From: Anaerolineales bacterium UBA3499
Lineage (GTDB): Bacteria > Chloroflexota > Anaerolineae > Anaerolineales > UBA11657
Length of the DNA: 64,000 nucleotides
NCBI GenBank assembly: GCA_002377585.1
Contig: DFQC01000007.1
Coordinates: forward strand, 2,706-66,705
Reading direction: 5' to 3'
A program made the translations under genes and the position numbers. Positions within the stretch are counted from its first letter, which is position 1; the number at the start of each line of letters is the position of its first letter. The notes under the pieces are model-generated. The model was not told the origin of the DNA. It worked only from the letters and a program-made list of their open reading frames with translations, and did no database searches. Shown here piece by piece: positions 12,566-49,097 of the stretch.

Positions 12566-12587
12566 AAGTATAAACCTAACATCTGTA

Positions 12588-13829: not shown

Positions 13830-13832
13830 TTT

Positions 13833-14813: not shown

Positions 14814-14873
14814 TAGGTTTCTCCTGTATTAGGTGTCATCTCGATCATAGTTCTTTCTTGTGCACTAGAGATG

Positions 14874-18752: not shown

Positions 18753-19169
18753 ATGGATGTAACTGTAGCTCTAGCTGTAGTAGCAATGATTGGAATGGGG
18801 ATTAATTCTTTCGGTAACAAACTAGGAGCTGCGCAAGGGGTTTATGCGCCTCCTTTTCTACTTATTATAAATATAATGTACTGTGTTGCGGCTCTAGTGC
18901 TTCATGTTGTTCAGAAACAACCATTTATAATATCATCGAAGATGATTGGTCTAGCTTTGTTAATTGGTTTATGTGGATCTATAAGTTACGTGAGTATGTT
19001 TACAGCATTTGAGTTAGGTGGAGAGGGCAGCATACTGTTTCCGATCAGAGGATTATCGGTTGTAGTTGCTGTTGTACTATCGATACTCTTTTTTAAGGAG
19101 CCAGTGACTCTTAATCGTCTGTTGGGATTAACTTTAGGTGTCAGTTCGATATTGATATTGTCACGCTGA
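18753..19169 (+). CDS. Half-size DMT/EamA-like membrane transporter (138 aa), paralog of 42..458
   Basis: Same length and same motif positions as 42..458 (FELGGEGSI, FFKEPVT, ...LILSR). Confidence 0.6.
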   Translation: MDVTVALAVVAMIGMGINSFGNKLGAAQGVYAPPFLLIINIMYCVAALVLHVVQKQPFIISSKMIGLALLIGLCGSISYVSMFTAFELGGEGSILFPIRGLSVVVAVVLSILFFKEPVTLNRLLGLTLGVSSILILSR

Positions 19170-23386: not shown

Positions 23387-24796
23387 ATGAAACTTCGTTA
23401 TATAGTATCAGGCTTGATTATGGCCTCCCTTCTCTTGGGCGCTTGTCAACCTGAGGTAGTAGAAGTGATCAAAGAGGTTCCAGTTGAGAAGATCGTCGAA
23501 GTTGAGAAGATCGTTGAAGTTGATTCTTCAGCAGTGTCTCTCGATGCCGATCCCGACAAGAACCCTGTCACTTTGAAGTTCCTCGCTCTTTCTGATGATG
23601 ATCAGTTGAATGCATGGAGAGAGCAGTTAGGTGAGTTCCAGAAGATAGATGGTGGAAAATGGTCCTATGTTGATCTCGAATTTGAGACCATTCCATTCCG
23701 TGAGCTTTTCCCCAAGATTGAGGCTTCTGTTGCAGCTGGCTTGCCTTGGGACTTGTATCAGGCTGATGGTCCTGACATGAAGCATTATGGCTTCAATCGC
23801 GTTATCTATGATATGAACGACCTATTTACGGCTGATGAGAAAGCACAATGGTTCCCACAGTCTATAGAAGAAGGTAGCTTCCGTGGCCGACTTTTGGGAC
23901 CACCGATCCTACAATCTTGTTCTTTGCTTATGTACAACAAGGATATGACCGATGCCGCTGGTATTAATCCACCTGCAGCTTTGGCCGATTCTTGGACGAT
24001 GGATGAAGCAATGGACGCATGGGTAAAAACAACTTTAGATAATGATGGTGACGGCGTACCTGATCAGTGGGGTGTACGTTGGGGTCAAGGTACCTGGACT
24101 GGTGATTATGAGCATGGTATCTTCAGACGTTCTAATGGCGTCAAAGGTAGTGATGCTTGGAAAGGTATGGGCGACGATGGTGTAACATTCAGGGGTTATG
24201 TAGATGCTCCAGAATCTATCGAAGCACATCAGTTCTATCAGGACATGCATCAGAAACAGAAAGTTACTCCAGTAGAGTCAATTCCTGAGATCTTTGAGAG
24301 TCGTATTTCGGCCTTCATGGTAACACCTGATAACCGAATTGGTGCTCTTAACAGAATTCACGGTGAAGGTAACTTCAACTGGGGTGTAACTGGTATTCCA
24401 TACTTCAAGACCCAGGTTTGTCACACTGGTAGTTGGCACTATGGAATTTCCCCGAACACACAAAATCTTGCAGAGGCTGTAGCCTTCGTCAAATATGCTT
24501 CATCTGATGACGGAGCTCGAATCTTCTACAAGTACGTGAGACAGTTGCCTGCTAACATAGGCCTGTTCAACGAGCTTCCAGAGTATGCTGAAGGTGGAAG
24601 CCAGAGACTGTGGCTAGACGCCATGAATGACTTTGGTATACCTCGTATCGGTACTCCGGGATACACAGAGTATCACCAGATGTATGCAGAAGCCCTGGGT
24701 AACATTCAACAGGGTGGCGATCCAGCAGAATTGTTGGGCGCAGCTGCCGGTAGGATAGAAGGATTGACAGCCAAATACACTGGTTGGAACAACTAA
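23387..24796 (+). CDS. ABC transporter substrate-binding lipoprotein (CUT1 / solute-binding family 1)
   Basis: Lipobox ...LLLGAC, then a low-complexity linker with the duplicated EKIVEV. It has the size and W/Y-rich pattern of sugar-type binding proteins. The ATG at 23387 has a GAGGAG Shine-Dalgarno sequence, which the track start at 23372 lacks. Confidence 0.75.
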   Translation: MKLRYIVSGLIMASLLLGACQPEVVEVIKEVPVEKIVEVEKIVEVDSSAVSLDADPDKNPVTLKFLALSDDDQLNAWREQLGEFQKIDGGKWSYVDLEFETIPFRELFPKIEASVAAGLPWDLYQADGPDMKHYGFNRVIYDMNDLFTADEKAQWFPQSIEEGSFRGRLLGPPILQSCSLLMYNKDMTDAAGINPPAALADSWTMDEAMDAWVKTTLDNDGDGVPDQWGVRWGQGTWTGDYEHGIFRRSNGVKGSDAWKGMGDDGVTFRGYVDAPESIEAHQFYQDMHQKQKVTPVESIPEIFESRISAFMVTPDNRIGALNRIHGEGNFNWGVTGIPYFKTQVCHTGSWHYGISPNTQNLAEAVAFVKYASSDDGARIFYKYVRQLPANIGLFNELPEYAEGGSQRLWLDAMNDFGIPRIGTPGYTEYHQMYAEALGNIQQGGDPAELLGAAAGRIEGLTAKYTGWNN

Positions 24797-24835
24797 TAGA
24801 GGGGTAGCAGCTAACTAATAATTGCTACTTGTTGT

Positions 24836-24872
24836 GAAAGAAGGCACGGATTATTTGTCCGTGCCTTCTTTC
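24836..24872 (+). terminator. Strong intra-operon hairpin (attenuator/terminator) after the binding-protein gene
   Basis: A perfect 15-bp stem gaaagaaggcacgga/tccgtgccttctttc with the 7-nt loop ttatttg. It lies in the 231-bp gap before the permease genes. Confidence 0.6.
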
Positions 24873-25027
24873 AAACTCTCAATCTGTGTTGAGGTATTTT
24901 TTATCAACAGTTTCAAGCACATATGGTATTTTAGTCGGCCAATTTTTCAAAAGAGGTGGAGCAGTTCTCAAAACTGTTTCAGTATGTTTACTGGATTTCA
25001 AGAACTTATATAGAAAAGAATTAGACA

Positions 25028-25960
25028 ATGACTACAGTTCCTATATCATCTACAGATCAATCCTCGTCATTCCTAGCTAAATTGTGGAGTCCGAGAAACC
25101 GTTATTATTTCATAGCATTCTTATTTATTCTGCCAGCTCTTATAAACTTTTCCATTTTCAGGTATTTGCCAATCTTTGCTGCTGCTAGAGCTAGTTTGTG
25201 GCAGTATAGTTTGTTGGGCGGCTACAGGGATTTTATTGGTTTGCAGCACTACCAATTCATGATGGAGGATATTTATTTTTGGAAATCCATGAAGGTGACA
25301 GCTTTGTTTGTTCTCATGAAGGTGCCAATTCAGGTGTTGCTTTCACTTATGTTCGCAGTATTGCTTCAAAAGGAGACGCGGTCTAGTGCAGTAGTGAGAT
25401 CAGCAATATTTACTCCAGTGGTCACATCAGTTGTGGTAGTGTCGATTATCTGGGCTATGATGTATCATTCGCAACTCGGCTTGATCAATAGTGTGTTGTC
25501 TGCTTTTGGAATACCAAGACAGGTGTTTTTGTCAGATGCTGATAGAGCATTACCAGCTATGACTGCTATGATGATATGGAAAGATCTTGGGTTTAGCATG
25601 ATCATTATTATGGCTGGTTTGAAAGGTATACCAGTGGTGTATCGGGAAGCAGCTATTGTAGATGGCGCTAAACCTTGGCAAATTATGCGTTATATTACTT
25701 TGCCCTTGTTGCAGCGGGTCTTGATGTTCGTAGTAGTTACACAAACCATCTTTTCGTTTCAGAATTTTGTCCCTGTCTATGTCATGACGAAAGGTGGTCC
25801 CATGGATTCAACCAAGGTGATAGTGTATTACATCTATCAATACGGTTTTCTTTTCCAGGATATGGGCTACGCTAGCGCCATGTCGGTAGTGACTTTGCTG
25901 GTGTTATTGGTTGTCAGCATGATACAGATGAGGTTGTTTAGGACAGATGTTGAGTATTAA
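25028..25960 (+). CDS. ABC sugar-type permease (MalF/UgpA-like)
   Basis: Six hydrophobic helices and an EAA-like loop (REAAIVDGAKPWQIMRYITLP). Confidence 0.8.
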   Translation: MTTVPISSTDQSSSFLAKLWSPRNRYYFIAFLFILPALINFSIFRYLPIFAAARASLWQYSLLGGYRDFIGLQHYQFMMEDIYFWKSMKVTALFVLMKVPIQVLLSLMFAVLLQKETRSSAVVRSAIFTPVVTSVVVVSIIWAMMYHSQLGLINSVLSAFGIPRQVFLSDADRALPAMTAMMIWKDLGFSMIIIMAGLKGIPVVYREAAIVDGAKPWQIMRYITLPLLQRVLMFVVVTQTIFSFQNFVPVYVMTKGGPMDSTKVIVYYIYQYGFLFQDMGYASAMSVVTLLVLLVVSMIQMRLFRTDVEY

Positions 25961-25995
25961 TCCGATGAAAATTTTATTAATGGTCAAGTGATAAT

Positions 25996-26913
25996 ATGGA
26001 AACTGTGAATACAAGTACTGGTGTTTTAGGTGAAAGGTCTCCAAGTCAAACCCTAAAAAAATTAGGGTTGTGGTTAGGTGAGAACTTTCTATACTTAATA
26101 ATTATCGTTATATTTGTTGCTCCTTTAGTTTGGATGGTGTTGGGCAGCTTAAGGGAAGAAAAAGAAATATTCGCTAATCTGTATCCATTCACTATTCATA
26201 CTTTTCTACCAATCCAATGGACCCTGGATACATACCTAGATATGTTTGGAATCAGTGAAATAGGGATTATGTATGGACTGCATTTTCACCGATTTATGGC
26301 CAATAGTTTGTTTGTTTCAGTTGCGGTGGTTTCTTGTTCACTTGTGTTCAATACAATGGGTGCCTATTTCTTTGCGCGGTTGGATTTTCCTTTCAAGAAC
26401 TTTCTGCTGATATTTGTTGTGGCGACTATGTTGATTCCGTTTCAGGCCACAATAGTACCTTTGTACATAGTTGTGTCAAAATTAGGCATGCGTGATTCTT
26501 TCTGGGGATTGATAATACCTTGGTTTGCCAGTCCATTTGTTATATTCGCTTTGGCTCAATTCATCAAGGAAATACCCAAAGAGCTCGATGAGGCAGCGAC
26601 AATAGATGGAGCTTCACTTTGGGGTATTCTCTGGAATGTAATTCTTCCCAATGCTATACCTGGAATTATTACTATGGCTTTGCTTGAATTTCAGTTTATA
26701 TGGAATCTTTTCTACTGGCCTCTGATCGTGATAAACAGTCCCGATTTACAGATGATACAGGTTGCTATAGCAAATCAAACTACACAAACTCAGATTTTCT
26801 GGGGACGTACGTTTGCGGGCAGTACTTTAGCCTCGTTGCCTGTGATTATAGTCTTTTTAGCACTCCAAAAGTGGTACATACAAGGCGTGGCGACGACAGG
26901 ATTAAAGGGATAA
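25996..26913 (+). CDS. ABC sugar-type permease (MalG/UgpE-like)
   Basis: EAA loop LDEAATIDGASLWGILWNVILP and a multi-helix profile. No cognate ATPase gene follows. Confidence 0.8.
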   Translation: METVNTSTGVLGERSPSQTLKKLGLWLGENFLYLIIIVIFVAPLVWMVLGSLREEKEIFANLYPFTIHTFLPIQWTLDTYLDMFGISEIGIMYGLHFHRFMANSLFVSVAVVSCSLVFNTMGAYFFARLDFPFKNFLLIFVVATMLIPFQATIVPLYIVVSKLGMRDSFWGLIIPWFASPFVIFALAQFIKEIPKELDEAATIDGASLWGILWNVILPNAIPGIITMALLEFQFIWNLFYWPLIVINSPDLQMIQVAIANQTTQTQIFWGRTFAGSTLASLPVIIVFLALQKWYIQGVATTGLKG

Positions 26914-27019
26914 GCACAGGCGCGGACTAACTGTTTGTTTTGGTATTGCAATAAGCAAAACACTGGGTGCAGATACCTGAAAGGCTCAAAATATATTGGA
27001 TCCGAAAATACTATAGGTT

Positions 27020-27964
27020 ATGGAATCTCATAAACTTATCCTCGACACTGATCCAGGTGTTGATGATTCAATGGCTATTGCTTTAATAGCAAATTCTCCT
27101 GAAATTACTTTGCATTCAGTCACTACTATTTTTGGTAATGGACCTGTATCTTTGTCTACTGAAAATGCGTTAAGAGTCTTAGATATAGTTGGTCTTAGTC
27201 ATATCGAGGTGTTTGAAGGTGCTAACAAACCTCTACTTCGAGAGTTTGGTGGCGAAGGTGCCAGAGTGCATGGTAGTGATGGTTTGGGCGAGACTTTTAT
27301 GCCTCCTTCCCCCCGAAGTGCTGGCTCTGAATTTGCAGCAATTCACATCGTAAATTCAATTATGTCTCATCCCGGTCAGATTACGCTTGCAGCGATTGGT
27401 CCTTTAACCAATTTGGGATTAGCACTATCGATCGAACCACGAATAGCCGAGAATGTAAAAGAAGTGGTTATTATGGGTGGGGCAGTAGATGTGCCTGGTA
27501 ATGCATCACCATTGGCAGAAGCTAATATTCATAATGATCCCGAGGCAGCTAGTCTGGTGTTTGGTGCAGATTGGCATCTTACAGTTGTTGGTCTTGACGT
27601 TACTACACAAGTGCTGATGGATGCTAAGTATCTAGCGTCTCTTGCTAAAAGCCAAACACCCACTACTGATATGATTGCGGCGATTACTCCGCATTATTTG
27701 GATTTCCACAAGAAGTATAGGAATGAGACTACTATGCCAGTACATGATTCATCAGCTATAGCATATTTGGTCAAACCGGATTTGTTTTTAACGAAGAAAT
27801 TGTATGTTGATGTTATTAAAGGGGAACATCCTTGCAGTGGTCAGACAGTTGCTGATTGGAAAAATCATTGGGGCAGAGAACCCAAAACAAATGTTTGTCT
27901 AGGTGTGAATGCAGACGAAATGTTAGCCATGTATATAAAACGAGTGGGAGGAAGCAAGAGATGA
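27020..27964 (+). CDS. Nucleoside hydrolase NH3 (IUNH family)
   Basis: [19 protein letters not shown], and [10 protein letters not shown] with the catalytic His present. Confidence 0.85.
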
Positions 27965-29046
27965 CTCAATCTATTGATGCGAAGCGCTTATACAACCATG
28001 TTCTTGGTGGACTTGCTGGAGCGGGCATGGGAGATGCGCTTGGAGCTGCTACGGAACAGTGGCATCATACTGAAATATTTGCAAAGTTTGGAGGACCACT
28101 CAGATCGTTTCAGCAACCTCCTCCAGATACTTGGTCCGGAGCAGAGAGTAACAAGCTTGGTCAGGTAACTGATGACGCTAGTCAGATGTTCTATTTGGCA
28201 CATAAACTTATAGAGTGTGATGGGTCACTTACCCATGATGATTGGGTTGCGTGTCTATTGCAGTGGGCAGACGAGTCTCCTCATGTGGGTAACATGGGGC
28301 CTACTACTCGATTGGTAGTACAAGCTCTCAAGGAAGGCACAGATCCTAACCTTGTAGGTGTTATTGGTACATCAGACAGACAGCCAGCATCGCATGGAGC
28401 CACAAATGGTGCAGCCATGAGAGTGGCACCGGCAGGATTGATTCATCCTGGGAATCTTGATGCAGCTTGTGATACAGCTCTTATTACGTGTATACCATCG
28501 CACTCGACTCAGATCGCTATTTCTTCTGCATGTGCAATAGCTGCTGGTGTGGCCCATGCGCTTGAAGAGGGCGCAGATGTCTTTTCCGTAGTAAAGGCTT
28601 GTTTATATGGTGCACGTCGGGGTGAAGAGCTTGCCAAGGAACATGGACGCATCGTGCCAGGCCCGAGTATTTTAGTCAGGAGTGAGCTCGCTGTTAATTT
28701 AGCACTTAAGGCTGAATCTTTACCTGAAGCAATCAAATTGATAGAAGACAGTATAGGTAATTCTGTAGATGCTTGTCAGTCAGTACCAGCTGCTATTGGT
28801 CTTTTTGTGTTTGCAGAGGGAGACCCGTTGGAGTCGATAGTAGGAGGTACTAATATCGGCAATGACACTGATACGATAGCAGCAATTGCTGGGTCTCTTG
28901 CCGGCGCGCTTCGTGGTGTTGATGCTATGCCAAAAGATATGTTTGAAACTTTCTGGCAAGCCAATGCTGATGATGAATTTGATATCAATGAACTGGCTGA
29001 GGGACTTACAAAAATCGCTCTTAACAATCAAGGAGGATCTTCATGA
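27961..29046 (+). CDS. ADP-ribosylglycohydrolase (ARH/DraG) family protein
   Basis: [20 protein letters not shown] and [17 protein letters not shown] motifs. The ATG at 27961 forms an ATGA overlap with the NH3 stop. The track's longer N-terminus (27856) only overlaps NH3. Confidence 0.8.
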
Positions 29047-29963
29047 CATCTGTAATTATTGATTGTGATCCTGGTCATGATGATGCGTTAGCCATTCTTT
29101 TGGCTGCTAAACATTTGGACGTACTGGGGATTACTACGGTATCGGGCAATGAATCTATTGATAACGTTACTACTAACGCTCTAAAGTTGGTGGAGGTTGG
29201 TAATTTGACTCATATACCTGTGGTGCGTGGTGCTGAAGGACCGTTACTTCGTGAAGCTGTTTATGCACCTCAGGTGCATGGCAAATCGGGTATGGATGGT
29301 GCTGAAATTCCAGAGCCTACTACCAAGCTCAAAGAAGGTCATGCGGTCGATTTTATTATCGATACTGTTATGAGCACATCTGACGTAGTGCTTTTGCCTA
29401 TGGGCCCATTAACGAATATAGCATTGGCTTTAAGAAAGGAACCAAGACTTCGTGATCGAGTCAAGCTTATGAGTATTATGGGAGGAAGCAGCACTAACGG
29501 GAATATTACACCTACCGCTGAATTCAACATATATGTTGATGCTGAAGCAGCTGATATAGTGTATCAGTCGCAAATTCCTATGTTGATGTCTGGTCTTAAT
29601 TTGACTCGTCAGGTTTTGGCTAAACAAGAACATATTGATGAGATTCGAGCAATTAATAACCCTACAACCAGTGTGGTAGCTGACCTACTTACCTTCTATT
29701 TAGCAACTAGCACACGGCATAGTCATGATGGTGCTGCGATGCATGATCCTTGTGCTGTTGCTGCTATTATAGATCCCACCCTCATAGAATTTGAACCAAT
29801 GCATGTTGCTGTAGAGACAGCAGGTGCTCATACCTATGGCATGACTGTTTGCGACGATAGACCTGGGTCGGTCAAGTCAAAAGAAGCTAACGTGGAAGTT
29901 GCTGTCAAAATTGATAGCGACCGTTTCTTTAAGCTGCTAATTGATACACTAAGGATGTACTAG
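29043..29963 (+). CDS. Nucleoside hydrolase NH4 (IUNH family)
   Basis: DCDPGHDDALAI, GPLTNIA, and AAMHDPCAVA with His present. It overlaps the ARH gene by 4 nt. Confidence 0.85.
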   Translation: MTSVIIDCDPGHDDALAILLAAKHLDVLGITTVSGNESIDNVTTNALKLVEVGNLTHIPVVRGAEGPLLREAVYAPQVHGKSGMDGAEIPEPTTKLKEGHAVDFIIDTVMSTSDVVLLPMGPLTNIALALRKEPRLRDRVKLMSIMGGSSTNGNITPTAEFNIYVDAEAADIVYQSQIPMLMSGLNLTRQVLAKQEHIDEIRAINNPTTSVVADLLTFYLATSTRHSHDGAAMHDPCAVAAIIDPTLIEFEPMHVAVETAGAHTYGMTVCDDRPGSVKSKEANVEVAVKIDSDRFFKLLIDTLRMY

Positions 29964-29991
29964 GGCTCATTTGAGTCTTGCGTAATATATA

Positions 29992-30939
29992 GTGTCTGGC
30001 CGTAATATCTTCCTTGATGTTGATACAGGAGTAGATGATGCGTTAGCGTTACTCTTAGCTGCTAGGTCACCTCAGCTTAATGTAAAAGGTGTGACCTGCG
30101 TAGCTGGTAATGTACCCATAGATAGAGTTGTGAGAAACACTTTGGATATATTAAATGTTGCCGATGCGTCTCATATTCCAGTTGCTAGGGGTATGGAGTT
30201 TCCGCTAGTGGAAAAAATGTTTAATGCTACTGAAATACATGGAGAAAATGGGTTGGGAGGTATAGATTTGCCTGCTAGCCGCTCTACAGTTATTGATAAG
30301 CATGCAGTGGAATTTCTGGCCAGGGAAATCGATAACACTTCGGAGAAGGTGACTATTGTGGCGCTTGGACCGCTGACTAACATAGCTACTTTGTTTCGTA
30401 TTTACCCGAATGTTGTCTCGAGTATTGAGCAGCTCGTTATCATGGGTGGTGCAATAGGATCTGGTAATACAACTCCTACTGCTGAATTTAATATTCGTCA
30501 GGATCCTGAAGCAGCTGATGTGGTGTTCAATATGGACGTACCTACTTTGCTGTACGTATGGGATGTTTTTACTAGAGTGCGTTTTGACAAGCAAGAAGTG
30601 GATGAAATGATTGCCAGTGACAACAATTGCAAGTCAATTGCGGGTAAATTGCTGTTGTCTTATTTGACTACTAAGAAAGAAGATACTGCGGGCATCGGAG
30701 ATGCTGGTGCGGTAGCATGTTTGTTGATTCCAGAAGAGATAACTACAGCTGTTATGCCAATATCTGTGGAACTTATCGGGGAACACACACGAGGACAGAC
30801 TGTATTTGACCAACGAAAACGGAAACTAAGTAGACTGCAACCTAAAATACAAAAATCCATAAGTGGAATGACAGAAGTAGTTATGGATTTAGATGTGGAA
30901 AGTTTCCGGAATGCTTTTGTAGATAATATTGTGAAATAG
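29992..30939 (+). CDS. Nucleoside hydrolase NH5 (IUNH family, His-less variant)
   Basis: DVDTGVDDALAL and GPLTNIA. The His position reads AGIGDAGAVA, so His is replaced by Gly. GTG start. Confidence 0.8.
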   Translation: MSGRNIFLDVDTGVDDALALLLAARSPQLNVKGVTCVAGNVPIDRVVRNTLDILNVADASHIPVARGMEFPLVEKMFNATEIHGENGLGGIDLPASRSTVIDKHAVEFLAREIDNTSEKVTIVALGPLTNIATLFRIYPNVVSSIEQLVIMGGAIGSGNTTPTAEFNIRQDPEAADVVFNMDVPTLLYVWDVFTRVRFDKQEVDEMIASDNNCKSIAGKLLLSYLTTKKEDTAGIGDAGAVACLLIPEEITTAVMPISVELIGEHTRGQTVFDQRKRKLSRLQPKIQKSISGMTEVVMDLDVESFRNAFVDNIVK

Positions 30940-30950
30940 GTTAGACAATC

Positions 30951-31901
30951 ATGGTTCCCAAAAAGATTTATCTAGATGTTGACACTGGAGTAGATGATGC
31001 CCTGGCATTGCTTTTGGCTTCAAGGTCTCCAGACTTGGACATTAGAGGTGTTACATGTGTGTCTGGAAATGTTCCGGTTGATCTTGTGGTCAGAAACACT
31101 CTGGACGTATTAGAAGTTGCTGGTGCATCTCATGTACCAGTTGCCAGAGGTATGGATGTGCCTTTGCTGGAGACTATGGTAAATGCTGCAGAAATTCATG
31201 GCAAGAATGGATTGGGCGGGATTGAGATTGCACAGAGTGTATCGGAGCCATTAAGTGTGCATGCTGTAGAGTTCTTAAGAAGAGAACTAACAGATGTTTC
31301 AGAGCCGATTACAATTGTTGCCCTTGGCCCACTTACCAATATCGCTACATTAATACGCGCATATCCTGAAGTGGTGTCGAAGATAGATGAAATTGTTGTT
31401 ATGGGTGGTGCAATAGGACCCGGTAATGTTACTCCTACGGCAGAGTTTAATATCCGTCAGGATCCTGAAGCAGCTGATATAGTATTTGGTTCTGGTATAC
31501 CTATATTGCTGTATATTTGGGATGTGTTTATAAAGGTAGCATTTGTTCGTTCTGAGATAGAATCGTTCTCTAATAGCAGCAACAACAGTGTTGCTCTGGC
31601 AGGAAATTTACTCATGTCAATGTTAGATAGATTTGGCAGACCTAAAACTAGTATTGGTGATGCAGGAGCAGTTGCGTGTATATTAAACGCTAACGCAATA
31701 ACAGCGAAGCAATTACCTGTTGCGGTGGAATTGTCTGGCAAATATACTCGTGGTCAAACTGTTGTTGACCAACGTCCCCCGGATTTGGCTGATCTTGAAG
31801 AAGGCGATTTGCAAGTTGTGATGCCAAATACTATACGGGTCGTAGTTGATGTGGACGTGAATGGTCTTCGAGATACATTTGTCGAACATCTTGGAAAATA
31901 A
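30951..31901 (+). CDS. Nucleoside hydrolase NH6 (IUNH family, His-less variant; tandem paralog of NH5)
   Basis: It shares long identical runs with NH5 (LDVDTGVDDALALLLA, VARGM, TIVALGPLTNIATL, TPTAEFNIRQDPEAAD). The His position reads TSIGDAGAVA. Confidence 0.8.
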   Translation: MVPKKIYLDVDTGVDDALALLLASRSPDLDIRGVTCVSGNVPVDLVVRNTLDVLEVAGASHVPVARGMDVPLLETMVNAAEIHGKNGLGGIEIAQSVSEPLSVHAVEFLRRELTDVSEPITIVALGPLTNIATLIRAYPEVVSKIDEIVVMGGAIGPGNVTPTAEFNIRQDPEAADIVFGSGIPILLYIWDVFIKVAFVRSEIESFSNSSNNSVALAGNLLMSMLDRFGRPKTSIGDAGAVACILNANAITAKQLPVAVELSGKYTRGQTVVDQRPPDLADLEEGDLQVVMPNTIRVVVDVDVNGLRDTFVEHLGK

Positions 31902-31922
31902 ACTAAGTATAAAAGGAGTATT

Positions 31923-33050
31923 ATGTCTGAAATACTTGACATGCCTAAACTCATAAGAGAAGCTTCTGAGAAAGAGGGTGACGTGTGGATGCCTATTGCG
32001 GACTCGTGGCGCGAGATTTGTACAACGTCCTCGGTTATGAGTAGAGAGTTTGAAAAACAGCAAAATGTACTTGAAAATATTGCGTTAGATTTGCAGAAAA
32101 GAGGCGTTAAACATATCCTAATACTGGGATCGGGCGATTCATGGTTTGCCGGCATGGCCGTCTGTTATGCATTTGAACATTATGCTGGAATTACTGCCAT
32201 ACCTATACAGGCGTATGAATATGCCATGTATGGTAGTTTGATAGCAGATGAGAATAGCGCAGTAGTTGTCATAAGTTCAAGCGGTAGACCTACTACTACC
32301 TGGGATGCGCTGGATCGCGCATTGCAGACCGAGTCATATGTTGTGGGGATTAGCGACACGGATTATGAAGGAAATCCGTTTCTGGAAAAACCACATGCAA
32401 GTATCAATCCGAGTGCTAAAAAATTGGGAATGCCAGCACAGACTACGACAGTCACAATTGGTTTACTAATCAATTTAGCTCTTATTATGGGTAGGGAGTC
32501 CTCTTTCTTAGCTAAGGACACATATGATGATCTAATTGCACAGTTGAGAAATATTCCCAATCAAATACTTGGGTTGTTGTCGTCTTTAGATGAGGTTTTG
32601 GCAGATGCAGCTAAGCATGGTGCACTGCATAGGATACATACAATTATAGGTAGTGGACCCAACTATGGTGTTGCTCATGTTGTTTCTGCTCTTTTAGCAG
32701 AAGGTCCTCAATTCACTGGACATCCAATGCCGGCAGAGGAATATCATCATGCTTTACGTGGTCGTACCATACAAAAAGGTGATCCGGTTTTGCTTGTTGC
32801 CCCATCAGGACAAGGATACCCACGCGTGGTAGAAGCTAGTAGTGACTTAAAGGAACTGGGCGCCTACATCATGGCTGTTGTTGATGAAGGAGAACAAACA
32901 ATAACCACGATAGCAGATAACAGTGTCCATGTACCGTCTGTTGATGAACCAATGTCACCATTGCTTACTCTTCCTCCCGTGCAAATGTACAGTTTATATC
33001 TGGCATCTGAAAGAATAGCTGTTGGTTATCAACGTCCATTAGTCAATTGA
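31923..33050 (+). CDS. Double-SIS-domain sugar-phosphate isomerase/deglycase-like protein (FrlB/AgaS/GlmS-isomerase-like) S1
   Basis: LGSGDSWFAGMA and ISSSGRPTTT form the first SIS domain. IGSGPNYGVAHV and EEYHHALRG form the second. AAGGAG Shine-Dalgarno sequence. Confidence 0.7.
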   Translation: MSEILDMPKLIREASEKEGDVWMPIADSWREICTTSSVMSREFEKQQNVLENIALDLQKRGVKHILILGSGDSWFAGMAVCYAFEHYAGITAIPIQAYEYAMYGSLIADENSAVVVISSSGRPTTTWDALDRALQTESYVVGISDTDYEGNPFLEKPHASINPSAKKLGMPAQTTTVTIGLLINLALIMGRESSFLAKDTYDDLIAQLRNIPNQILGLLSSLDEVLADAAKHGALHRIHTIIGSGPNYGVAHVVSALLAEGPQFTGHPMPAEEYHHALRGRTIQKGDPVLLVAPSGQGYPRVVEASSDLKELGAYIMAVVDEGEQTITTIADNSVHVPSVDEPMSPLLTLPPVQMYSLYLASERIAVGYQRPLVN

Positions 33051-33958
33051 GTGAAAAATACCTTGCTCTGGGAGGTATTATTATCGATGACCTTGTGCAT
33101 GAGGATGGAACTACATCGATGGGCGTGCTTGGCGGAGGTGGGTTATACGCAGCACTAGGGTCTCGAATTTGGTCAGAAGACGTTTGTATGGTGGCTAGAG
33201 TTGGACGGGATTTTAATATTACATCTATATCTGAAAAAGGATTACGTACAGAATATATTGAGTTGACTTCTTTACCTACACCACGTGCATGGCAGTTGCT
33301 TGATAGCAATGATGAGCGGACGCAAATCCCTCGGGTGTCAGCTGAGGACTGGTACTCACAGTTAGTAGTTGAGCAACATGATATACCAGATATCAGTAAC
33401 CTCACCGGATTGCATATCTTGGGGAGAGGTTCAGAAGCTGAGTATGACATAATGAGCCTATACTCTAAGAAAGGGACTACAATAAGTTATGAGCCTGTTG
33501 TCGATCACAATACAGACACTAAGCGAATTGCCGCTATCATACGGTGTTTGCGAATGGTGAATATATTCTCACCAGACCTACTGGCATGCGAAGTATTAGC
33601 GGATGTGCAAGATCCTACTGATGCTGGAAGATGGTTTGCTGAACGAGGACCTCAAGTTGTGGTACTACGCATGGGCAAGCAAGGTGCTATGTTATATGAG
33701 TCGGACCATAATGAAGTGTGGAAGATACCCTCTTACGCAAACCGTATAATTAATACCGTTGGTGCTGGTAACGCATTTTGTGGTGGTTTCTTAGCAGGCT
33801 GGTGTCCAAACCATGACATATCTGATGCAGGTGCTAGCGCTGCTATTAGTGCTTCAATTACAATGGAGAACTTAGGTCCTCCAACAGTTTCGGTAGATTT
33901 ATCTGAGCGAGCTTTGGAATTACACAGACAGTTTGTACCAAGGATTTCTAAGCAATGA
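33047..33958 (+). CDS. PfkB-family protein K3 with GAGN motif (catalytic Asp replaced by Asn)
   Basis: PfkB fold signature NTVGAGNAFCGGF and N-terminus LALGGIIIDDLVHEDG...GGGGLYAALG. Paralog of 39075..40016. The TTG start overlaps S1 by 4 nt. Confidence 0.7.
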   Translation: MSEKYLALGGIIIDDLVHEDGTTSMGVLGGGGLYAALGSRIWSEDVCMVARVGRDFNITSISEKGLRTEYIELTSLPTPRAWQLLDSNDERTQIPRVSAEDWYSQLVVEQHDIPDISNLTGLHILGRGSEAEYDIMSLYSKKGTTISYEPVVDHNTDTKRIAAIIRCLRMVNIFSPDLLACEVLADVQDPTDAGRWFAERGPQVVVLRMGKQGAMLYESDHNEVWKIPSYANRIINTVGAGNAFCGGFLAGWCPNHDISDAGASAAISASITMENLGPPTVSVDLSERALELHRQFVPRISKQ

Positions 33959-34902
33959 TTAAATTGGCAAGTGGCTCTGTATCATCAGTAGATGTTGTTT
34001 CAGTAGGCGGATTATGTATTGACATAGTGCTTAAGGTAGACCGATTTCCAGGCCATGACGAAAAAGTTGCGAGTGAATTGATTGGAAATCTTCCAGGGGG
34101 ACCGCAGCCTAATTTTGCCTGTGCTGCTAGTACACTAGGGCTTTCTGTCAGAACGTTATCACATATTGGCACGGATGAATATGGAGAGATTGTTAAGGCT
34201 GATATGGAAAAATATGACGTTGATACGCAGTGTGTTGAGACTGTACCAGGAGCAACTATTGCTACTATTATTTTGTTAGACCCAACTGGAGAAAAGGCTA
34301 TTATAGTGATGCCTAATGAAAAAACAGGTTATCAACCTGAGCTGGTAGAGGTTGCACTTAGTAATGTGAACTATATGTATATTTGGCCAGAACCTAGAGA
34401 ATCCTTCATAAAATTGGCAACAATAGCACAATCAAAAAGCATTCAGGTCATGATCGATGTTGAAGATACTGCATGCGAGGGGTCTAATTTTCTAGAACAA
34501 GTACTTCCACATACTAATATAGCAAGCTTTAATTTTGATGGGTATAGAGCAGCAACAGGATTCGACAGTGTTGATTTTGGACAAATGAAGAACTTATTAG
34601 AATATGGTCCTCATACTATAGTTGTTACTCATGGGCGTGACGGTGCCTATGCAGTCACTGCCGATGACGTTGTTCGTCACAATGGGTATAATGTTCCAGT
34701 GGTAGACAGTACTGGTGCAGGAGATACTTTTAACGCAGCTTTCTTGACAAGCACTATTGCCGACTATTCTCTAGAAAAAAGAATCGAGTTTGCATGTGCA
34801 GCTGGTGCGATATCAGTGACAGGACTTGGTCCTAAAGGACACTTGCCATCGTTTGATGAAACACTTGAATTTATGTCTATGAACGAAGAAAATACAAAAT
34901 AA
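33955..34902 (+). CDS. PfkB/ribokinase-family kinase K4
   Basis: DSTGAGDTFNAAF and SVGGLCIDIVL. It overlaps K3 by 4 nt. Confidence 0.8.
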   Translation: MIKLASGSVSSVDVVSVGGLCIDIVLKVDRFPGHDEKVASELIGNLPGGPQPNFACAASTLGLSVRTLSHIGTDEYGEIVKADMEKYDVDTQCVETVPGATIATIILLDPTGEKAIIVMPNEKTGYQPELVEVALSNVNYMYIWPEPRESFIKLATIAQSKSIQVMIDVEDTACEGSNFLEQVLPHTNIASFNFDGYRAATGFDSVDFGQMKNLLEYGPHTIVVTHGRDGAYAVTADDVVRHNGYNVPVVDSTGAGDTFNAAFLTSTIADYSLEKRIEFACAAGAISVTGLGPKGHLPSFDETLEFMSMNEENTK

Positions 34903-34928
34903 CAATTAATATGAAAAGGAGTTAAATT

Positions 34929-36077
34929 ATGTCAGATAACACTATGATTGCACAAGTGGAACGTTTGCCAGAAATAATTAGGGAGCAGACACCTATCATT
35001 GATCAGCGTATCAGAAGATTGCTGGACCATGAGCTATGTTTGTCGGTCAAGCACATAGTCACCACGGGATGTGGCGATTCTCATATGGCTGCTGTCGCAA
35101 CCGAACTGGCTTTTGAGCAGTTAGCTGGTATATCAACTGAGCCTTTGAACGCTATGACAGCTGCTCGGTACAATTTGGCTGTCAACAAAAGTGCTTTTCC
35201 GGGAAACCCCTTACTGGTGTGTATTTCTGCTTCTGGTGGTGTAGCTAGGACTCGCGAAGCTCTTGGGGTGGGAAAAGAGGCTGGAGCTACTACACTAGCT
35301 TTGACTGCTAATACAGAATCACCTCTTGCATCTATTGCAGACCTTGTTCTAGACTGCTCAGTACCTGAATATGATCATGCACCGGGAGTGATATCTTATC
35401 GTGTATCGATGATAGCGTTATTCTTGATAGCCATTCGGCTTGCGGAGGTTCGGGAAAAGATGACTCAAGACCAGGCTGGTGCTTTACGTCAACAGCTTGC
35501 TTCGATAGGAGATGCGGTTGAAGCTACCATCGAGGGTTGTCGGGACAAAGTTTTGGAAGTAGTAAAAGCTACTAAAGACCAGAAGAATTTTGTCTTTGTA
35601 GGTGATGGTCCTAACTACTCAACTGCTTTGTTTGGAGCTGCAAAATTGTTAGAGGCGGCTGGAAGTCATGCTATGGGACAAGATACAGAAGAATGGGCTC
35701 ATCTTCAGTATTTTGCTAATGCTGATACAGATACTCCGACTTTTGTTATTTCTCCTGCTGGTAGAGGCCATAATAGGGTAGCTGAAATTCTGGAGCCTAT
35801 GAATAGGGTAGGACGTTATTCTGTTGGTATAGTACCTGAAGGGGATGATGTGGTTGGACCCAATGTTGATATGGTGCTGCCTGTAGTAGGAAATGTGCCT
35901 GAGATTTTCTCACCACTGATTTATCCAGTAGCGACAGAGTTGTTTGCTGCATATTTTGCGGATGAAATTGGCGAAAAGTTTTTCCGAGGTTTTGAAGGTG
36001 TATACGATGATGATGATGCAAACACAATTAAAACAAGTACTATCCTGTCCCGAAATGATATGTCGGGGTCAGCATAA
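34929..36077 (+). CDS. Double-SIS-domain isomerase/deglycase-like protein S2
   Basis: TGCGDSHMAAVA and ISASGGVARTRE form the first SIS domain. VGDGPNYSTALFGAAKLLE forms the second. AAGGAG Shine-Dalgarno sequence. Confidence 0.7.
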   Translation: MSDNTMIAQVERLPEIIREQTPIIDQRIRRLLDHELCLSVKHIVTTGCGDSHMAAVATELAFEQLAGISTEPLNAMTAARYNLAVNKSAFPGNPLLVCISASGGVARTREALGVGKEAGATTLALTANTESPLASIADLVLDCSVPEYDHAPGVISYRVSMIALFLIAIRLAEVREKMTQDQAGALRQQLASIGDAVEATIEGCRDKVLEVVKATKDQKNFVFVGDGPNYSTALFGAAKLLEAAGSHAMGQDTEEWAHLQYFANADTDTPTFVISPAGRGHNRVAEILEPMNRVGRYSVGIVPEGDDVVGPNVDMVLPVVGNVPEIFSPLIYPVATELFAAYFADEIGEKFFRGFEGVYDDDDANTIKTSTILSRNDMSGSA

Positions 36078-36187: not shown

Positions 36188-37357
36188 ATGATTGGTGAAG
36201 CTCTTAAATCGTATACACAATTGTATACGCACATGGAGTCCTTAATAACACCGGAAGCTTCTTTCACAGCATTTAAGAGATTAGCAGATACATATGCTCC
36301 TACTCTAAGTGCTAGATATACTCGAGGTGAGGTAGTTAGAAATATATTGGAAGAAAGTAAGTCTGAAGGTGCTCTAGGCGATAACGTTGACCTAGATTTG
36401 AATTACAGGAAGACTGGCAATGTTTGTATTACATTGGGTGAACAGAGCAGAAAACCGATCTGGGCATTTGCGCATTTGGACAACATCAGTTATTTAACTG
36501 GTCCTATCGAAAATGGTGTTTATCCTCTGACTGCATTTCATGAACCAAGAATTACTCCTGGTGAACGCGATGGTCTTGCGCTACTTTATGATGAGCAATC
36601 GCAGAATCTAGTTTCTGCTGCAAAAGGTATGATTGTTACTGGAGAAGATAGTAACAATAGTGTGTTTAAGACTGATATAACTGATTTGCCGCCTGCGACT
36701 AGAGTAGTGTTTCAAACTGCAGCGGAGTGGGATAAGGGCACAGGTATGTTGTATGGTTCAGTAGATGATGCGTTTGGTTGTACAGCTCTTGTGATGTCAG
36801 CAATTGTACTTTCAGCATTCGATGTTGATGCTTTGATAGTTTTGACAGATGAAGAAGAAGGAGTGGTTGGTGTGGGTAATACTGCCTTTGCGCGTGGAAG
36901 TCAGCGTTTGATATCTCGTACTGATCCTAAACAATTACCCGCAATTATGTCAGTGACTGATCTGCATGAGAGAAAACCAACAATTGATGATAATGGTGAT
37001 GTTGTAGCAGTTCCTGGATGTGGTGACGGAGCGTTGTTTGCAGGATTTGCGAGCGGTGCTCGAGGTGGTGTCACTCCTCCACATGTCTTGTCGGCGATGC
37101 GCGAAGTGTCTGGACTGCTAAATGAGAAGGGAATTTCGATGCGGGAAAACGAATCATATGTTAGCCGAAGTGACTGCGTGTCTGCAATGATGGCTACTCA
37201 GAACGTTGTTCTTATGGGATTTCCCGGAGCTTATTCGCATTTTTTAAGAACACCAAGGGCACATATTGACGATTTGGTAGCATTGTCAAAATCACTTACT
37301 GTGCTTATAGCAGCTGCTCAATCTTCAGATTGGAGAAAACATTATTTGATTGACTAG
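36188..37357 (+). CDS. M42/M20-like metallohydrolase-fold protein
   Basis: AFAHLDNISY, VDDAFGCTALV and LTDEEEG resemble the M42 segments (AHMDEIG, DDRxG, QEEVG). The match is weak, so the family call is tentative. Confidence 0.45.
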   Translation: MIGEALKSYTQLYTHMESLITPEASFTAFKRLADTYAPTLSARYTRGEVVRNILEESKSEGALGDNVDLDLNYRKTGNVCITLGEQSRKPIWAFAHLDNISYLTGPIENGVYPLTAFHEPRITPGERDGLALLYDEQSQNLVSAAKGMIVTGEDSNNSVFKTDITDLPPATRVVFQTAAEWDKGTGMLYGSVDDAFGCTALVMSAIVLSAFDVDALIVLTDEEEGVVGVGNTAFARGSQRLISRTDPKQLPAIMSVTDLHERKPTIDDNGDVVAVPGCGDGALFAGFASGARGGVTPPHVLSAMREVSGLLNEKGISMRENESYVSRSDCVSAMMATQNVVLMGFPGAYSHFLRTPRAHIDDLVALSKSLTVLIAAAQSSDWRKHYLID

Positions 37358-37456: not shown

Positions 37457-37861
37457 ATGATAACGATTAATATAGATACGCAACAACGTCAAGATTTAGT
37501 CAATATAACAGAAGATGTCCAAGCGTCTGTTTCCTCTTACGGTATTGATGAGGGTGTATGTGTTGTTTATTGTCCACATACAACTGGTGGTATTACTTTA
37601 AATTCGCAAATGGATCCACCAACTCTGACTGATCTTATAGAAGAAATCGATCGAATCGTACCTACACGGGTGGATTTCAAACATATCTTTGATACTCCAT
37701 CTGATGCTGCTGGCCATATTAAGGCTAGTATTATAGGTAATAGTGTCAGTGTTCCTATAAGTTTAGGTAAGCTTGCGTTAGGCTCTTCGCAAGGTATATT
37801 GTTCTGGGAGTTTGATGGTCCTCGCAACAGGAAGGTTCATTTGCAAATAATTGGAAGTTAA
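37457..37861 (+). CDS. YjbQ/UPF0047-family protein
   Basis: VVYCPHTTGGITLNS and DAAGHIKASIIG are typical of the family. 134 aa. AGGGAGG Shine-Dalgarno sequence. Confidence 0.7.
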   Translation: MITINIDTQQRQDLVNITEDVQASVSSYGIDEGVCVVYCPHTTGGITLNSQMDPPTLTDLIEEIDRIVPTRVDFKHIFDTPSDAAGHIKASIIGNSVSVPISLGKLALGSSQGILFWEFDGPRNRKVHLQIIGS

Positions 37862-37911: not shown

Positions 37912-39072
37912 ATGATTCGATTTTGGTTTAAGCTATTTTATGCTGTGGAGTTTGTGGGTGTTGGTGTATTTATGCCCTATATAGCTATGTATTTCATTAG
38001 GAAGGATCTTACTAGTTCTGAGGTAGGATACCTTCTAGCACTTACTCCGTTTGCAGGCTTTATTGTACAGCCTGTGTGGGGTGTTATCAGCGATAAATTA
38101 AATGTAACCCGGTTGTTAGTTACTATTGGTTGCTGGGCCACGTCTGTCCTTGTACTCGCTTTTACAGTGACTGATAGATTTGAATACTTGGTTTTGGTTG
38201 TTGTGTTAATGTCTATACTCCGTGCTCCGATCCACCCAAATGTTGCTGCGTTGGCGTTAGCTCATTTGGAAGAGCGGGGCAAGCAAGACGAATATGGCAA
38301 GTTTCGTTTGTGGGGATCTATAGGATTTGTGGTTGCTACCATTTTTGCGGGTGGATTATTATTTGAAGACAATCTTACTTTGACAATTTATATCTATGCT
38401 GGAACTATGCTGGTATTAGGTGCAATTTCTTTTCAATTACCTGATCGTCACATATCTACTGAAGTTCAGTGGAAAGACGGCTTGCGCTTACTAGTAGATC
38501 ATCGCGAATTACGGGTGTTTTTGTTGGGGATAATTTGCGTTGGGCTCACATTGGGTATTACGAATCAATATTTAGTGGTTTATATGAATGAGTTAGACGC
38601 TTCAGCATGGATGATTGGTGCCACCGTAGCTGTTTCAGCTTTACCTGAAATACCGATAATGAGCTATGCTGAAACATTTATACGCAAATGGGGATTGCGT
38701 CTGACCTATGTTGTTGGAATTATTGCGTTACCCATACGTTGGTTATGCAATATGTTAGTGACCGACCCTAACATAGCGTTGCCTGTACAGGCATTGCATG
38801 GAGTAGCAATAGGTTCGCTCCTTTGTGTTGGAGTAATATATATAGATAATCTTCTACCCAGGTCTTGGCGAGCTTCAGGCCAGGCGCTTTACGTATCTAG
38901 TTTGCATGGTCTAGGTCCTTCTATAGGACTTTTCTTAGCTGGTTTATTAATGAGTTCTGGAAGCACCCGGTCTTTATGGGCCTTATGTCTTGGCGTAGGC
39001 ATCATTGGGTGTTATATTGTAAATAATGCTATGAGTGTAGGCAGCGAATCGATACCTGAGGTGGTCAATTAG
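37912..39072 (+). CDS. MFS transporter (MFS_1_like / nucleoside-H+ symporter-related type)
   Basis: About 12 hydrophobic helices. The N-terminus FKLFYAVEFVGVGVFMPYIAMYF is typical of the MFS_1_like group. Confidence 0.65.
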   Translation: MIRFWFKLFYAVEFVGVGVFMPYIAMYFIRKDLTSSEVGYLLALTPFAGFIVQPVWGVISDKLNVTRLLVTIGCWATSVLVLAFTVTDRFEYLVLVVVLMSILRAPIHPNVAALALAHLEERGKQDEYGKFRLWGSIGFVVATIFAGGLLFEDNLTLTIYIYAGTMLVLGAISFQLPDRHISTEVQWKDGLRLLVDHRELRVFLLGIICVGLTLGITNQYLVVYMNELDASAWMIGATVAVSALPEIPIMSYAETFIRKWGLRLTYVVGIIALPIRWLCNMLVTDPNIALPVQALHGVAIGSLLCVGVIYIDNLLPRSWRASGQALYVSSLHGLGPSIGLFLAGLLMSSGSTRSLWALCLGVGIIGCYIVNNAMSVGSESIPEVVN

Positions 39073-46200: not shown

Positions 46201-46248
46201 GAATATTCATTGTAGTTTGGCAAACTCACCTAAGGCTTGGGTAATTAT

Positions 46249-49056: not shown

Positions 49057-49097
49057 ATATTTTGTCACTTATGTGACAGTATTCTATTGAGTTGTAA

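Follow-up and report, generated by a model that had tools for sequence, protein, structure and literature searches.

A conserved Chloroflexota operon joining nucleoside hydrolases, PfkB kinases and GlmS-like double-SIS proteins

Which compounds would a bacterium take up and break down with an operon that joins an ATP-binding cassette (ABC) importer, several nucleoside hydrolases (NHs), kinases of the PfkB family and two double-SIS proteins? The question is raised by positions 23387-36077 of a 64-kb stretch of DNA from Anaerolineales bacterium UBA3499 (contig DFQC01000007.1), which was analysed at its full length and is referred to as the window. Twelve genes, all on the + strand, occupy these positions, and Pfam recovers every one of them in the order given by an earlier note on this DNA, which had likened the arrangement to the frl operons and had proposed a deglycation route for Amadori compounds. 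The analysis described here assigns the twelve genes to one conserved operon, not to chance neighbours. Judged from sequence, even chances are given to a role of this operon in the uptake and breakdown of N-ribosides (nucleosides and nucleoside-like compounds) in a marine Anaerolineales bacterium. Its kinase/SIS pairs would act on an intermediate, either a phosphorylated sugar or a compound of glycosylamine type, and probably release an amine from it.

Conservation and layout of the operon

BLASTP against the window proteins served to annotate 61 genome loci. A homologue of S2, the SIS gene that closes the operon, is present with at least 40% identity in 57 loci, of which 34 extend 8 kb or more upstream of S2. 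NH genes are found in 30 of these 34 and the same importer (binding protein or permeases) in 25, and the kinase gene K4 directly abuts S2 in 29 loci; taken together, these counts go far beyond chance and mark a conserved operon. The recurrent order, with optional members in brackets, is (UPF0047)-SBP-perm-perm-NH3-(ARH)-NH4-(NH6)-(S1-K3)-K4-S2-(MFS-K5), where SBP is the solute-binding protein, perm a permease and MFS a transporter of the major facilitator superfamily. It occurs in dozens of Chloroflexota species, among them members of the Caldilineaceae (including metagenome-assembled genomes (MAGs) from sponges and corals), Ardenticatenaceae, Promineifilaceae, Roseiflexaceae, Herpetosiphonaceae, Thermomicrobiales, and Sphaerobacteraceae. 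Homologues of S2 that are 98-99% identical lie on contigs of marine MAGs that carry the label Anaerolineales bacterium (UBA3001, Tara-derived bins), and homologues at about 60% identity are widespread in Chloroflexota. An origin from Firmicutes, to which the ATPase-less CUT1 importer and the GC content of 41% might have pointed, was rejected on the strength of these near-identical Chloroflexota homologues. In Caldilineaceae, S2 is directly followed by BtpA-PfkB-TrpF-like-PfkB.

The operon opens with a CUT1-type solute-binding lipoprotein (23387-24796; Pfam SBP_bac_8/SBP_bac_1) and two ABC permeases of the BPD_transp_1 family (25028-25960 and 25996-26913). The ATG start of the binding protein lies at 23387 with AGGAG as ribosome-binding site just before it, in place of the 23372 of the open reading frame list, and its lipobox LLLGAC precedes a linker of EKIVEV repeats. 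Binding-protein orthologues of 47-77% identity are likewise the first gene of the operon in other Chloroflexota, orthologues of permease 1 (60-92% identity) keep the same position in related loci, and BLASTP finds permease 2 orthologues in the related Chloroflexota loci as well. The earlier note had described an importer without ATPase, which is borne out: a six-frame Walker-A scan of the 64-kb window detects no MalK-type ATPase, and the sole ABC ATPase (40042-40986) is of the DrrA/ABC-2 type, so that the importer is left without a cognate ATPase here.

The importer is followed by NH3 (27020-27964; Pfam IU_nuc_hydro, 301 bits), ARH (27961-29046; ADP_ribosyl_GH, 183 bits), NH4 (29043-29963; 338 bits), NH5 (29992-30939), and NH6 (30951-31901), the NHs all belonging to the IU-NH family and NH3 and NH4 being core members of the operon. 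The remaining genes are S1 (31923-33050), K3 (33047-33958), K4 (33955-34902), and S2 (34929-36077). The 4-nt overlaps that had been reported for S1/K3 and K3/K4 are confirmed as TTGA and ATGA, respectively. ATGA also joins the NH3 stop to the ARH start, the true start of ARH being the ATG at 27961, and by coordinates ARH and NH4 overlap by 4 nt as well. Several of the twelve genes are translationally coupled.

An Rfam scan at gathering thresholds gives no riboswitch or other match in the locus. A scan for promoters and terminators is uninformative, as its matches are no more numerous than in shuffled sequence. Elsewhere in the window, and unrelated to the operon, Rfam reports a glycine riboswitch aptamer (58308-58417, - strand, 62.7 bits) and three tRNA genes (48984-49291, - strand). 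The GC content of the source DNA is 41%; the GC skew is strongly positive (0.07 to 0.26) over a 30-kb run of + strand genes (window 16001-48000), in agreement with the strand bias of the genes, and is about 0 or negative in the flanks.

SIS proteins, kinases and hydrolases

S1 (375 aa, two Pfam SIS domains) and S2 (382 aa) are 25% identical and consist of SIS domains only, no glutaminase domain being detected in either. NCBIfam ranks the GlmS isomerase domain first for both proteins (89 bits for S1 and 110 bits for S2, cut-off 381) and NagB-II second (NF046059; 40.4 and 47.7 bits, cut-off 430). The GlmS isomerase domain is also nearest in a PDB sequence search (E 1e-13 to 1e-17). The AlphaFold2 model of S2 (pLDDT 78) finds its best PDB folds in GFAT/GlmS isomerase domains, with TM scores of about 0.65-0.7. 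The FrlB equivalog model NF008481 (cut-off 430 bits) gives 12.4 bits for S2 (E 0.065) and no match for S1; the AgaS model TIGR02815 (cut-off 529 bits) matches neither protein even at E<=10. As controls, E. coli FrlB reaches 812 bits on the FrlB model and E. coli AgaS 635 bits on the AgaS model. BLASTP of FrlB (at E<1e-3) or AgaS against the window proteins returns nothing.

The catalytic hallmark of GlmS, FrlB, and FraB is a Glu/His dyad, in FrlB E224/H240, whose residues lie exactly 16 positions apart (PMC10285752). S1 and S2 keep this dyad at the same spacing, aligned with GlmS E488/H504, and the S2 pair E242/H258 is invariant among 21 homologues. Since FrlB, GlmS, AgaS, and NagB-II have the dyad in common, it does not tell them apart. 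Residues conserved in FrlB/FraB are S46, S91, S93, G94, T96, and E98 (PMC10285752). The equivalents of the first four (S, S, S, and G) are retained, as is the phosphate loop S-x-S-G. T96 is replaced by Pro in S1 and Val in S2, and E98 by Thr in S1 and by the invariant R107 in S2. The equivalent of GlmS K485 is present in S2 and absent from S1; S1 lacks the C-terminal tail, and the position aligned with K603 is mostly Arg or Thr in the S2 family. T302 of GlmS/AgaS is an invariant Asp ('GDS' instead of 'GTS') in three Chloroflexota SIS clades. The same Asp is found in the relatives from Rhizobium, Mesorhizobium, Actinomycetota, and Clostridiales, and not in FrlB, GfrE/F-like proteins or AgaS.

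A neighbour-joining tree with 100 bootstraps, built on a small reference set without FraB, B. subtilis FrlB, and NagB-II, recovers three SIS clades of Chloroflexota: S1 (100%), S2 (85-91%), which relatives from outside Chloroflexota join at 69%, and a third one. FrlB groups apart from these with a GfrF-like protein (99%), and the sequences of GlmS and AgaS fall outside; the tree does not resolve its deep nodes. S1 homologues occur in Chloroflexota-labelled records only, and the S2 family falls, at E<=1e-30, into 296 clusters of 50% identity. Hence the FrlB-type assignment of the SIS proteins does not hold, and the clustering with amino-sugar deaminases of the AgaS/NagB-II kind, which the earlier note had raised as the alternative, is seen neither with the family models nor, for AgaS, in the tree. 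The note's caveat that its assignment was not proven by homology was right. With phosphate loop and dyad kept and all curated family models failed, catalysis by S1 and S2 is plausible, and both appear to be GlmS-like superfamily proteins outside every characterised family; S2 is, as far as its sequence tells, the founding member of a cross-phylum family. Some S2-family proteins (P0292, P0368, P0373, and P0331) are fused to PP-binding (phosphopantetheine carrier) or FGE-sulfatase domains; these being the only partners, the fusions were discarded as Rosetta-stone clues to the substrate.

K4 is a ribokinase-like PfkB kinase (Pfam 143 bits) with the canonical GAGD motif (GAGDTF), found in 45 of 47 K4 orthologues. 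Its 130 bits on the ribokinase model TIGR02152 do not reach the cut-off of 300, and it is 28% identical to E. coli RbsK, with RbsK N14 and K43 replaced. Both residues are kept by another PfkB protein of the window (46237-47166), which is 42% identical to RbsK. On the FrlD model NF007321 (cut-off 247 bits), K4 scores 64.6 and K3 42.6 bits. K3 is a divergent PfkB-fold protein (Pfam 75 bits) that forms, together with the downstream K5 (39075-40016, + strand), a distinct PfkB subfamily in which the lid is shortened and an N-terminal DD is invariant; the motif reads GAGN, the catalytic Asp being replaced by Asn in both (GAGNAF in K3 and GAGNAY in K5). The Asn form is present in 18 of 23 K3-like and 38 of 50 K5-like orthologues and also in the Rhizobium and Clostridiales relatives. 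The residue follows gene position: a K5-type gene directly after S2 encodes Asp in 5 of 5 cases, and one after the MFS transporter encodes Asn in 17 of 17.

The five NHs encoded on the + strand of the window were aligned with E. coli RihC. DxDxxxDD, N39, H82, E166, N168, and D242 are invariant in all five, and the Pfam scores of the window NHs range from 272 to 338 bits. On sequence grounds, the NHs look like competent ribonucleoside hydrolases. The leaving-group residue His241 is absent from NH5 and NH6, where 'IGD' replaces 'HD', and retained by the other aligned NHs, which hints that the base specificities of these two may differ. NH4 is nearest to UriH/RihA and scores 320 bits on the NCBIfam UriH model without reaching its cut-off of 450. 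NH3 is found in nearly all related loci, and NH6 orthologues occur in those of Caldilineaceae. ARH, whose gene is present in 24 of the 57 related loci, is 29% identical to E. coli YegU and finds its best PDB matches in MJ1187 and ARH3.

Distant relatives and neighbouring genes

Outside Chloroflexota, distant relatives of S2 (27-45% identity) are encoded in cassettes that combine a GntR/UTRA regulator, an ABC importer, a K5-type PfkB, the SIS protein, and UPF0047/YjbQ or BtpA, some of them without any glycosidase. UPF0047 and K5-type PfkB proteins accompany S2-type SIS proteins in Chloroflexota, Rhizobium, Clostridiales, and metagenomic loci; BtpA-SIS pairs are known from Mesorhizobium, Streptosporangium, Nonomuraea, and metagenomes. 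Mesorhizobium pMHb carries GntR/UTRA-PfkB-SIS-BtpA-Bmp-type ABC importer, and on R. leguminosarum pRL1 SIS-UPF0047-PNP_UDP_1 faces SBP-perm-perm-PfkB-MalK...NH. The order in a gut Clostridiales MAG is two SBP genes-perm-perm-AP_endonuc_2-GFO/IDH/MocA-PfkB-SIS-UPF0047, AP_endonuc_2 presumably being the Pfam family of FrlC. Four metagenomic loci read GntR/UTRA-Bmp-ABC-SIS-YjbQ-SIS-PfkB, PfkB-SIS-YjbQ-PNP, GntR/UTRA-SBP-perm-perm-BtpA-SIS-PfkB-ABC_tran-ABC2-unknowns, and GntR/UTRA-ABC-YjbQ-SIS-PfkB, and Bmp-type nucleoside ABC importers flank SIS/PfkB both in Mesorhizobium and in locus L079. In the species that the window comes from (UBA3001), a 55% paralogue of S2 is part of an operon S2'-PfkB-PfkB-PNP_UDP_1-PNP_UDP_1 (locus L018, 621-5591). 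A near-syntenic copy of the latter (L014) is binned as Rhodospirillaceae and may be a mis-binned contig.

The frl-like architecture noted at the outset is thus present, and more strongly than the window letters alone could show, with S2-type SIS proteins of other phyla (27-40% identity) placed in GntR/UTRA-importer-PfkB-SIS cassettes that contain no glycosidase. From these gene contents, the ancestral unit looks like an frl-like set of regulator, importer, PfkB, and GlmS-like SIS protein with YjbQ or BtpA, into which Chloroflexota are proposed to have inserted NHs, ARH, K4, and S1-K3. A full-text literature search found no paper describing an NH/SIS/PfkB cassette; on SIS-type deglycases and Amadori compounds it yielded only the papers on FrlB/FraB and FrlP.

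Two further observations concern single relatives. The Streptosporangium BtpA/SgcQ-SIS pair, on plasmid NZ_CP109431.1 (locus L072, 8082-10056), lies beside folE-queD-queE inside an apparent biosynthetic cluster for a 7-deazapurine nucleoside, which comprises folE, a queD-like gene, queE, and genes for a phosphoribosyltransferase, NUDIX, and kinases. A creatininase-family protein beside SIS-YjbQ in locus L080 was considered as an ArfB-type deformylase of formamidopyrimidines and rejected, its best NCBIfam matches being MftE and creatininase, both below cut-off.

In the window itself, the operon has partners on both sides. Downstream follow, on the + strand, UPF0047/YjbQ (37457-37861), an MFS protein resembling nucleoside:H+ symporters (37912-39072), and K5. 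Upstream, likewise on the + strand, lie an NH (16791-17756), BtpA/SgcQ (17828-18676), an EamA half (18753-19169), a TrpF-like protein (19224-19898), and a PfkB (19883-20866). BtpA gives no PDB match by sequence below E=0.1. InterPro counts both BtpA and TrpF-like proteins among the ribulose-phosphate-binding barrels. A second TrpF-like paralogue is encoded at 15872-16546 (- strand), and each of the two adjoins a PfkB gene. TrpF-like genes stand outside the conserved core and are present in only 9 of the 57 loci. Both window copies and 12 distinct Chloroflexota homologues retain Asp126 (LLDT) and carry, in a conserved xQIY motif, Gln for the catalytic Cys7 of TrpF. In the T. maritima enzyme, Cys7 presumably acts as general base and Asp126 as general acid.

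The - strand paralogue belongs to a second, divergent nucleoside cluster (11231-16546), which contains genes for the TrpF-like protein, a PfkB, an NH, an M20 deacylase, and an amidohydrolase of the 5'-methylthioadenosine/5'-deoxyadenosine/8-oxoguanine deaminase family, with an M29-like peptidase and a cyclase further on. The window also encodes an adenosine deaminase that narrowly passes its NCBIfam cut-off, and a 601-aa fusion (47153-48958, - strand) of a PfkB kinase with Q_salvage (Qng1/DUF2419-like, queuosine salvage; 24.9 bits on Pfam, cut-off 25), which suggests a kinase-then-glycosylase route for queuosine. Further NH, PfkB, and TrpF-like genes are distributed over both strands of the rest of the window. 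Two + strand genes near the downstream partners encode proteins of 389 aa (36188-37357) and 498 aa (41822-43318) without Pfam match. The latter comes after the DrrA-type ABC ATPase and an ABC-2 permease, and a PfkB-ABC_tran-ABC2-unknown tail is also found after BtpA-SIS-PfkB in the unrelated metagenomic loci L084 and L085.

Candidate functions and known systems

For the N-riboside role, the following course of events would account for the gene content. The lipoprotein binding protein and the two permeases would import the substrate, powered by a shared MalK/MsiK-type ATPase encoded elsewhere. Four IU-type hydrolases, whose Ca2+/ribose site appears intact, would cleave the N-ribosidic bond of conventional substrates together with ARH, as their motifs indicate. 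K4 may phosphorylate a primary hydroxyl, either on the product that carries the sugar or on a glycosylamine-type substrate that the hydrolases cannot cleave. In line with the chemistry of the family, the dyad of S2 and S1 would then open the phosphosugar and isomerise it at C1/C2 through an enol(amine); this step would most likely free an amine (deglycase/deaminase), and the resulting pentose or hexose phosphate would enter central metabolism. To our knowledge, the substrates of the characterised GlmS-like double-SIS enzymes are all hexose-6-phosphate amines. The N-riboside reading is favoured because the characterised enzymes of this group, GlmS, NagB-II/GlmD, AgaS, FrlB, FraB, and GfrE/F, all make or break a C-N bond beside a carbonyl (PMC10285752), because in several phyla the cassette does without glycosidases, and because nucleoside functions are linked to it in at least six independent contexts. 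This link is independent of the NHs, since PNP_UDP_1, PNP, and Bmp importers adjoin SIS/PfkB elsewhere. The deaminases, the RbsK homologue, the PfkB-Qng1 fusion, and the extra NH and PfkB genes in the rest of the window are consistent with the nucleoside theme.

Several points weigh against this reading. The only likeness of the CUT1 binding protein in a PDB sequence search is to distant oligosaccharide binders (E 2.6e-13), and the binding components of classical nucleoside ABC systems are Bmp proteins. If the NHs yield plain ribose, the RbsK-like kinase at 46237 suffices, and the role of the SIS proteins is not obvious. Cassettes lacking a glycosidase elsewhere imply that the SIS/kinase pair can work without NHs, so that the NHs may be no more than passengers under shared regulation. 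Without the catalytic Asp, K3 is perhaps no kinase, and in the model of S2 the loop of the catalytic His (residues 246-265) has a pLDDT below 50. We know of no substrate assignment, by experiment or by homology, for the S2 family, the K5-type PfkB, UPF0047, or BtpA.

The reading given by the earlier note, in which a PfkB phosphorylates an N-glycoside (glycosylamine), a TrpF-like protein converts it to a ketosamine phosphate, and S1/S2 act as FrlB-type deglycases with the NHs in parallel, is considered unlikely. Its frl-like logic has stood, and the Glu...His dyad in S1/S2 speaks for it: distant S2-type proteins belong to frl-like cassettes without glycosidase, where kinase and SIS protein must suffice to cleave the substrate, the Clostridiales relative lies beside AP_endonuc_2 and a GFO/IDH/MocA oxidoreductase, and TrpF-like/PfkB pairs are conserved beside NHs. 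The membership in FrlB has not, given the failed equivalog, the missing T96 and E98 (PMC10285752), and the separate 99% clade. Nor have the putative Amadori isomerases, with their replaced Cys7 and their scarcity among the loci, or the kinase function of K3, with Asn at its catalytic position. Moreover, the route would be chemically circular: the FrlB mechanism returns to the very aldimine that a glycosylamine forms when its ring opens, so that the TrpF step would add nothing, and glycosylamines of primary amines are, by general chemistry, unstable as environmental nutrients. A further reading, which we regard as distinctly improbable, takes the S2-type SIS protein, the K5-type PfkB (often in its Asn form), and UPF0047/YjbQ or BtpA as a hitherto unrecognised cross-phylum deglycation pathway for glycosylamine-type nucleosides. 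The kinase would form the 5'-phosphate; at the GlmS-like dyad, the ribosylamine ring would open and the Schiff base be hydrolysed, giving ribose-5-phosphate and amine. The substrates of this pathway would be exocyclic or ring-opened N-ribosides that resist classical nucleoside hydrolases, for example ribosylaminopyrimidines, or formamidopyrimidine ribosides derived from purine nucleosides that are damaged or methylated at N7.

Just as doubtful as this reading is the view that S1 and S2 are plain aldose-ketose isomerases of phosphosugars, with no amine involved. K4 would make ribose-5-phosphate or a related aldose phosphate, S2 would turn it into a ketose phosphate, K5 or K3 would add a 1-phosphate, and BtpA/UPF0047 would serve as epimerase or aldolase, either after the logic of AgaS followed by tagatose-6-phosphate kinase or as a bacterial counterpart to the pentose-bisphosphate pathway of archaea. 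In favour of this view, BtpA and TrpF-like proteins both count as ribulose-phosphate-binding barrels. There are about two PfkB genes per SIS gene, the S2'-PfkB-PfkB-PNP-PNP operon parallels the archaeal nucleoside phosphorylases with their PfkB-family ribose-1-phosphate kinase, and GlmS by itself isomerises fructose-6-phosphate to glucose-6-phosphate (PMC10285752). K4 and the PfkBs at 14874 and 19883 reach 100-128 bits on the haloarchaeal ribose-1-phosphate kinase model; this, however, is far below the cut-off, and the ribokinase model scores higher. Further, the window shows no recognisable RuBisCO, ribose-1,5-bisphosphate (R15P) isomerase, or aldolase, the known pure isomerases of the SIS superfamily differ in architecture, and a 1-phosphate would be expected to block ring opening by the GlmS dyad. 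The least probable view holds S1 and S2 to be ordinary amino-sugar-6-phosphate deaminases of the NagB-II/AgaS type, acting on a CUT1-imported hexosamine without functional tie to the NHs. ATPase-less CUT1 systems often import chitobiose-like sugars, kinase, SIS protein, and transporter alone would make a complete amino-sugar pathway, and NagB-II is the second NCBIfam match after GlmS. These matches, however, amount to 40-48 bits against a cut-off of 430, with none to the AgaS family, and the invariant Asp replaces T302 of GlmS/AgaS in the clades of S1, S2, and S3. No NagA deacetylase or hexosaminidase is encoded in the operon or the 57 related loci, and the SIS genes show a close link to the nucleoside functions NH, PNP, and Bmp that recurs in several phyla.

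What is at stake is a distinct SIS clade of about 300 clusters at 50% identity. In Chloroflexota, Rhizobiales, Actinomycetota, and Clostridia, its genes are tied to those for nucleoside-cleaving enzymes and for importers of the nucleoside type, and they are accompanied by two orphan families, UPF0047/YjbQ and BtpA/SgcQ, as well as by a PfkB subfamily lacking the canonical catalytic Asp. Knowledge of the substrate of this clade would establish a new route for the catabolism or repair of N-glycosides, give the two orphan families a function, and show which nucleosides the abundant Chloroflexota of the sea, of sponges, and of soils draw from dissolved organic matter. Should the deglycation pathway for glycosylamine-type nucleosides be true, the long-standing orphans UPF0047/YjbQ and BtpA/SgcQ would gain their first functions; should the SIS enzymes be ordinary amino-sugar deaminases, the finding would shrink to an unusual operon fusion.

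Among known systems, the frl operons (B. subtilis frlBONMD-frlP/frlR and E. coli frlABCD) come to mind, as they likewise combine a CUT1-type importer with a PfkB kinase and a GlmS-like double-SIS protein whose dyad residues are 16 apart, and as S2 relatives of other phyla share the GntR/UTRA regulator typical of FrlR. E. coli frl uses the FrlA permease, annotated as a fructoselysine/psicoselysine transporter and presumably of a type other than ABC. The description of the B. subtilis system as ATPase-less, given in the earlier note, is not strictly accurate, since it has its own ATPase FrlP besides MsmX (PMC12632257). In contrast to frl, S1 and S2 are not of the FrlB family by hidden Markov model, BLAST, or tree, the FrlB residues T96/E98 are not conserved, K4 reaches 65 bits on FrlD with its cut-off of 247, four NHs and ARH are embedded in the operon, and UPF0047 or BtpA are constant partners. 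The S2-type cassette therefore appears, by its sequences, to resemble the frl system without being a member of it.

The GlmS isomerase domain, NagB-II, and AgaS are nearest to S1/S2 in sequence and fold, with the phosphate loop, E488, and H504 kept and K485 present in S2; S1 and S2 differ from them by the missing glutaminase domain, by scores far below the cut-offs, by the change of T302 to Asp, by the K603 tail lysine, which is not conserved in S2 and whose tail is absent in S1, and by a neighbourhood without amino-sugar genes. Salvage by rihA/B/C and rbsK rests on IU-NHs with all the motifs seen here and on a kinase to which the 42% RbsK homologue at 46237-47166 in the same island corresponds. 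The operon differs from it in its CUT1 ABC uptake instead of NupC/NupG or Bmp and in its four to six NH paralogues, and known ribonucleoside salvage has no counterpart of the kinase/SIS pairs. Archaeal pentose-bisphosphate degradation likewise joins nucleoside-cleaving enzymes to several PfkB kinases and an isomerase-type enzyme, and the paralogous operon carries two PNP_UDP_1 genes; however, no R15P isomerase of the e2b2 type or RuBisCO is seen in the window, the kinase models stay below cut-off, and the isomerase candidate here is a GlmS-like SIS protein. In E. coli yegTUV, a cluster of unknown function, an MFS protein resembling nucleoside symporters, an ARH-family protein (29% to the window ARH), and a PfkB are also clustered. 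It lacks SIS, NH, and ABC importer genes, and YegV keeps GAGD and is nearest to the ribokinase-like K7, not K5; yegTUV was thus rejected as an orthologue of MFS-ARH-K5, the full-length match of YegV being K7 and only 89 residues aligning to K5. Set beside these systems, the operon is a catabolic cassette of kinase and GlmS-like enzyme with unprecedented partners.

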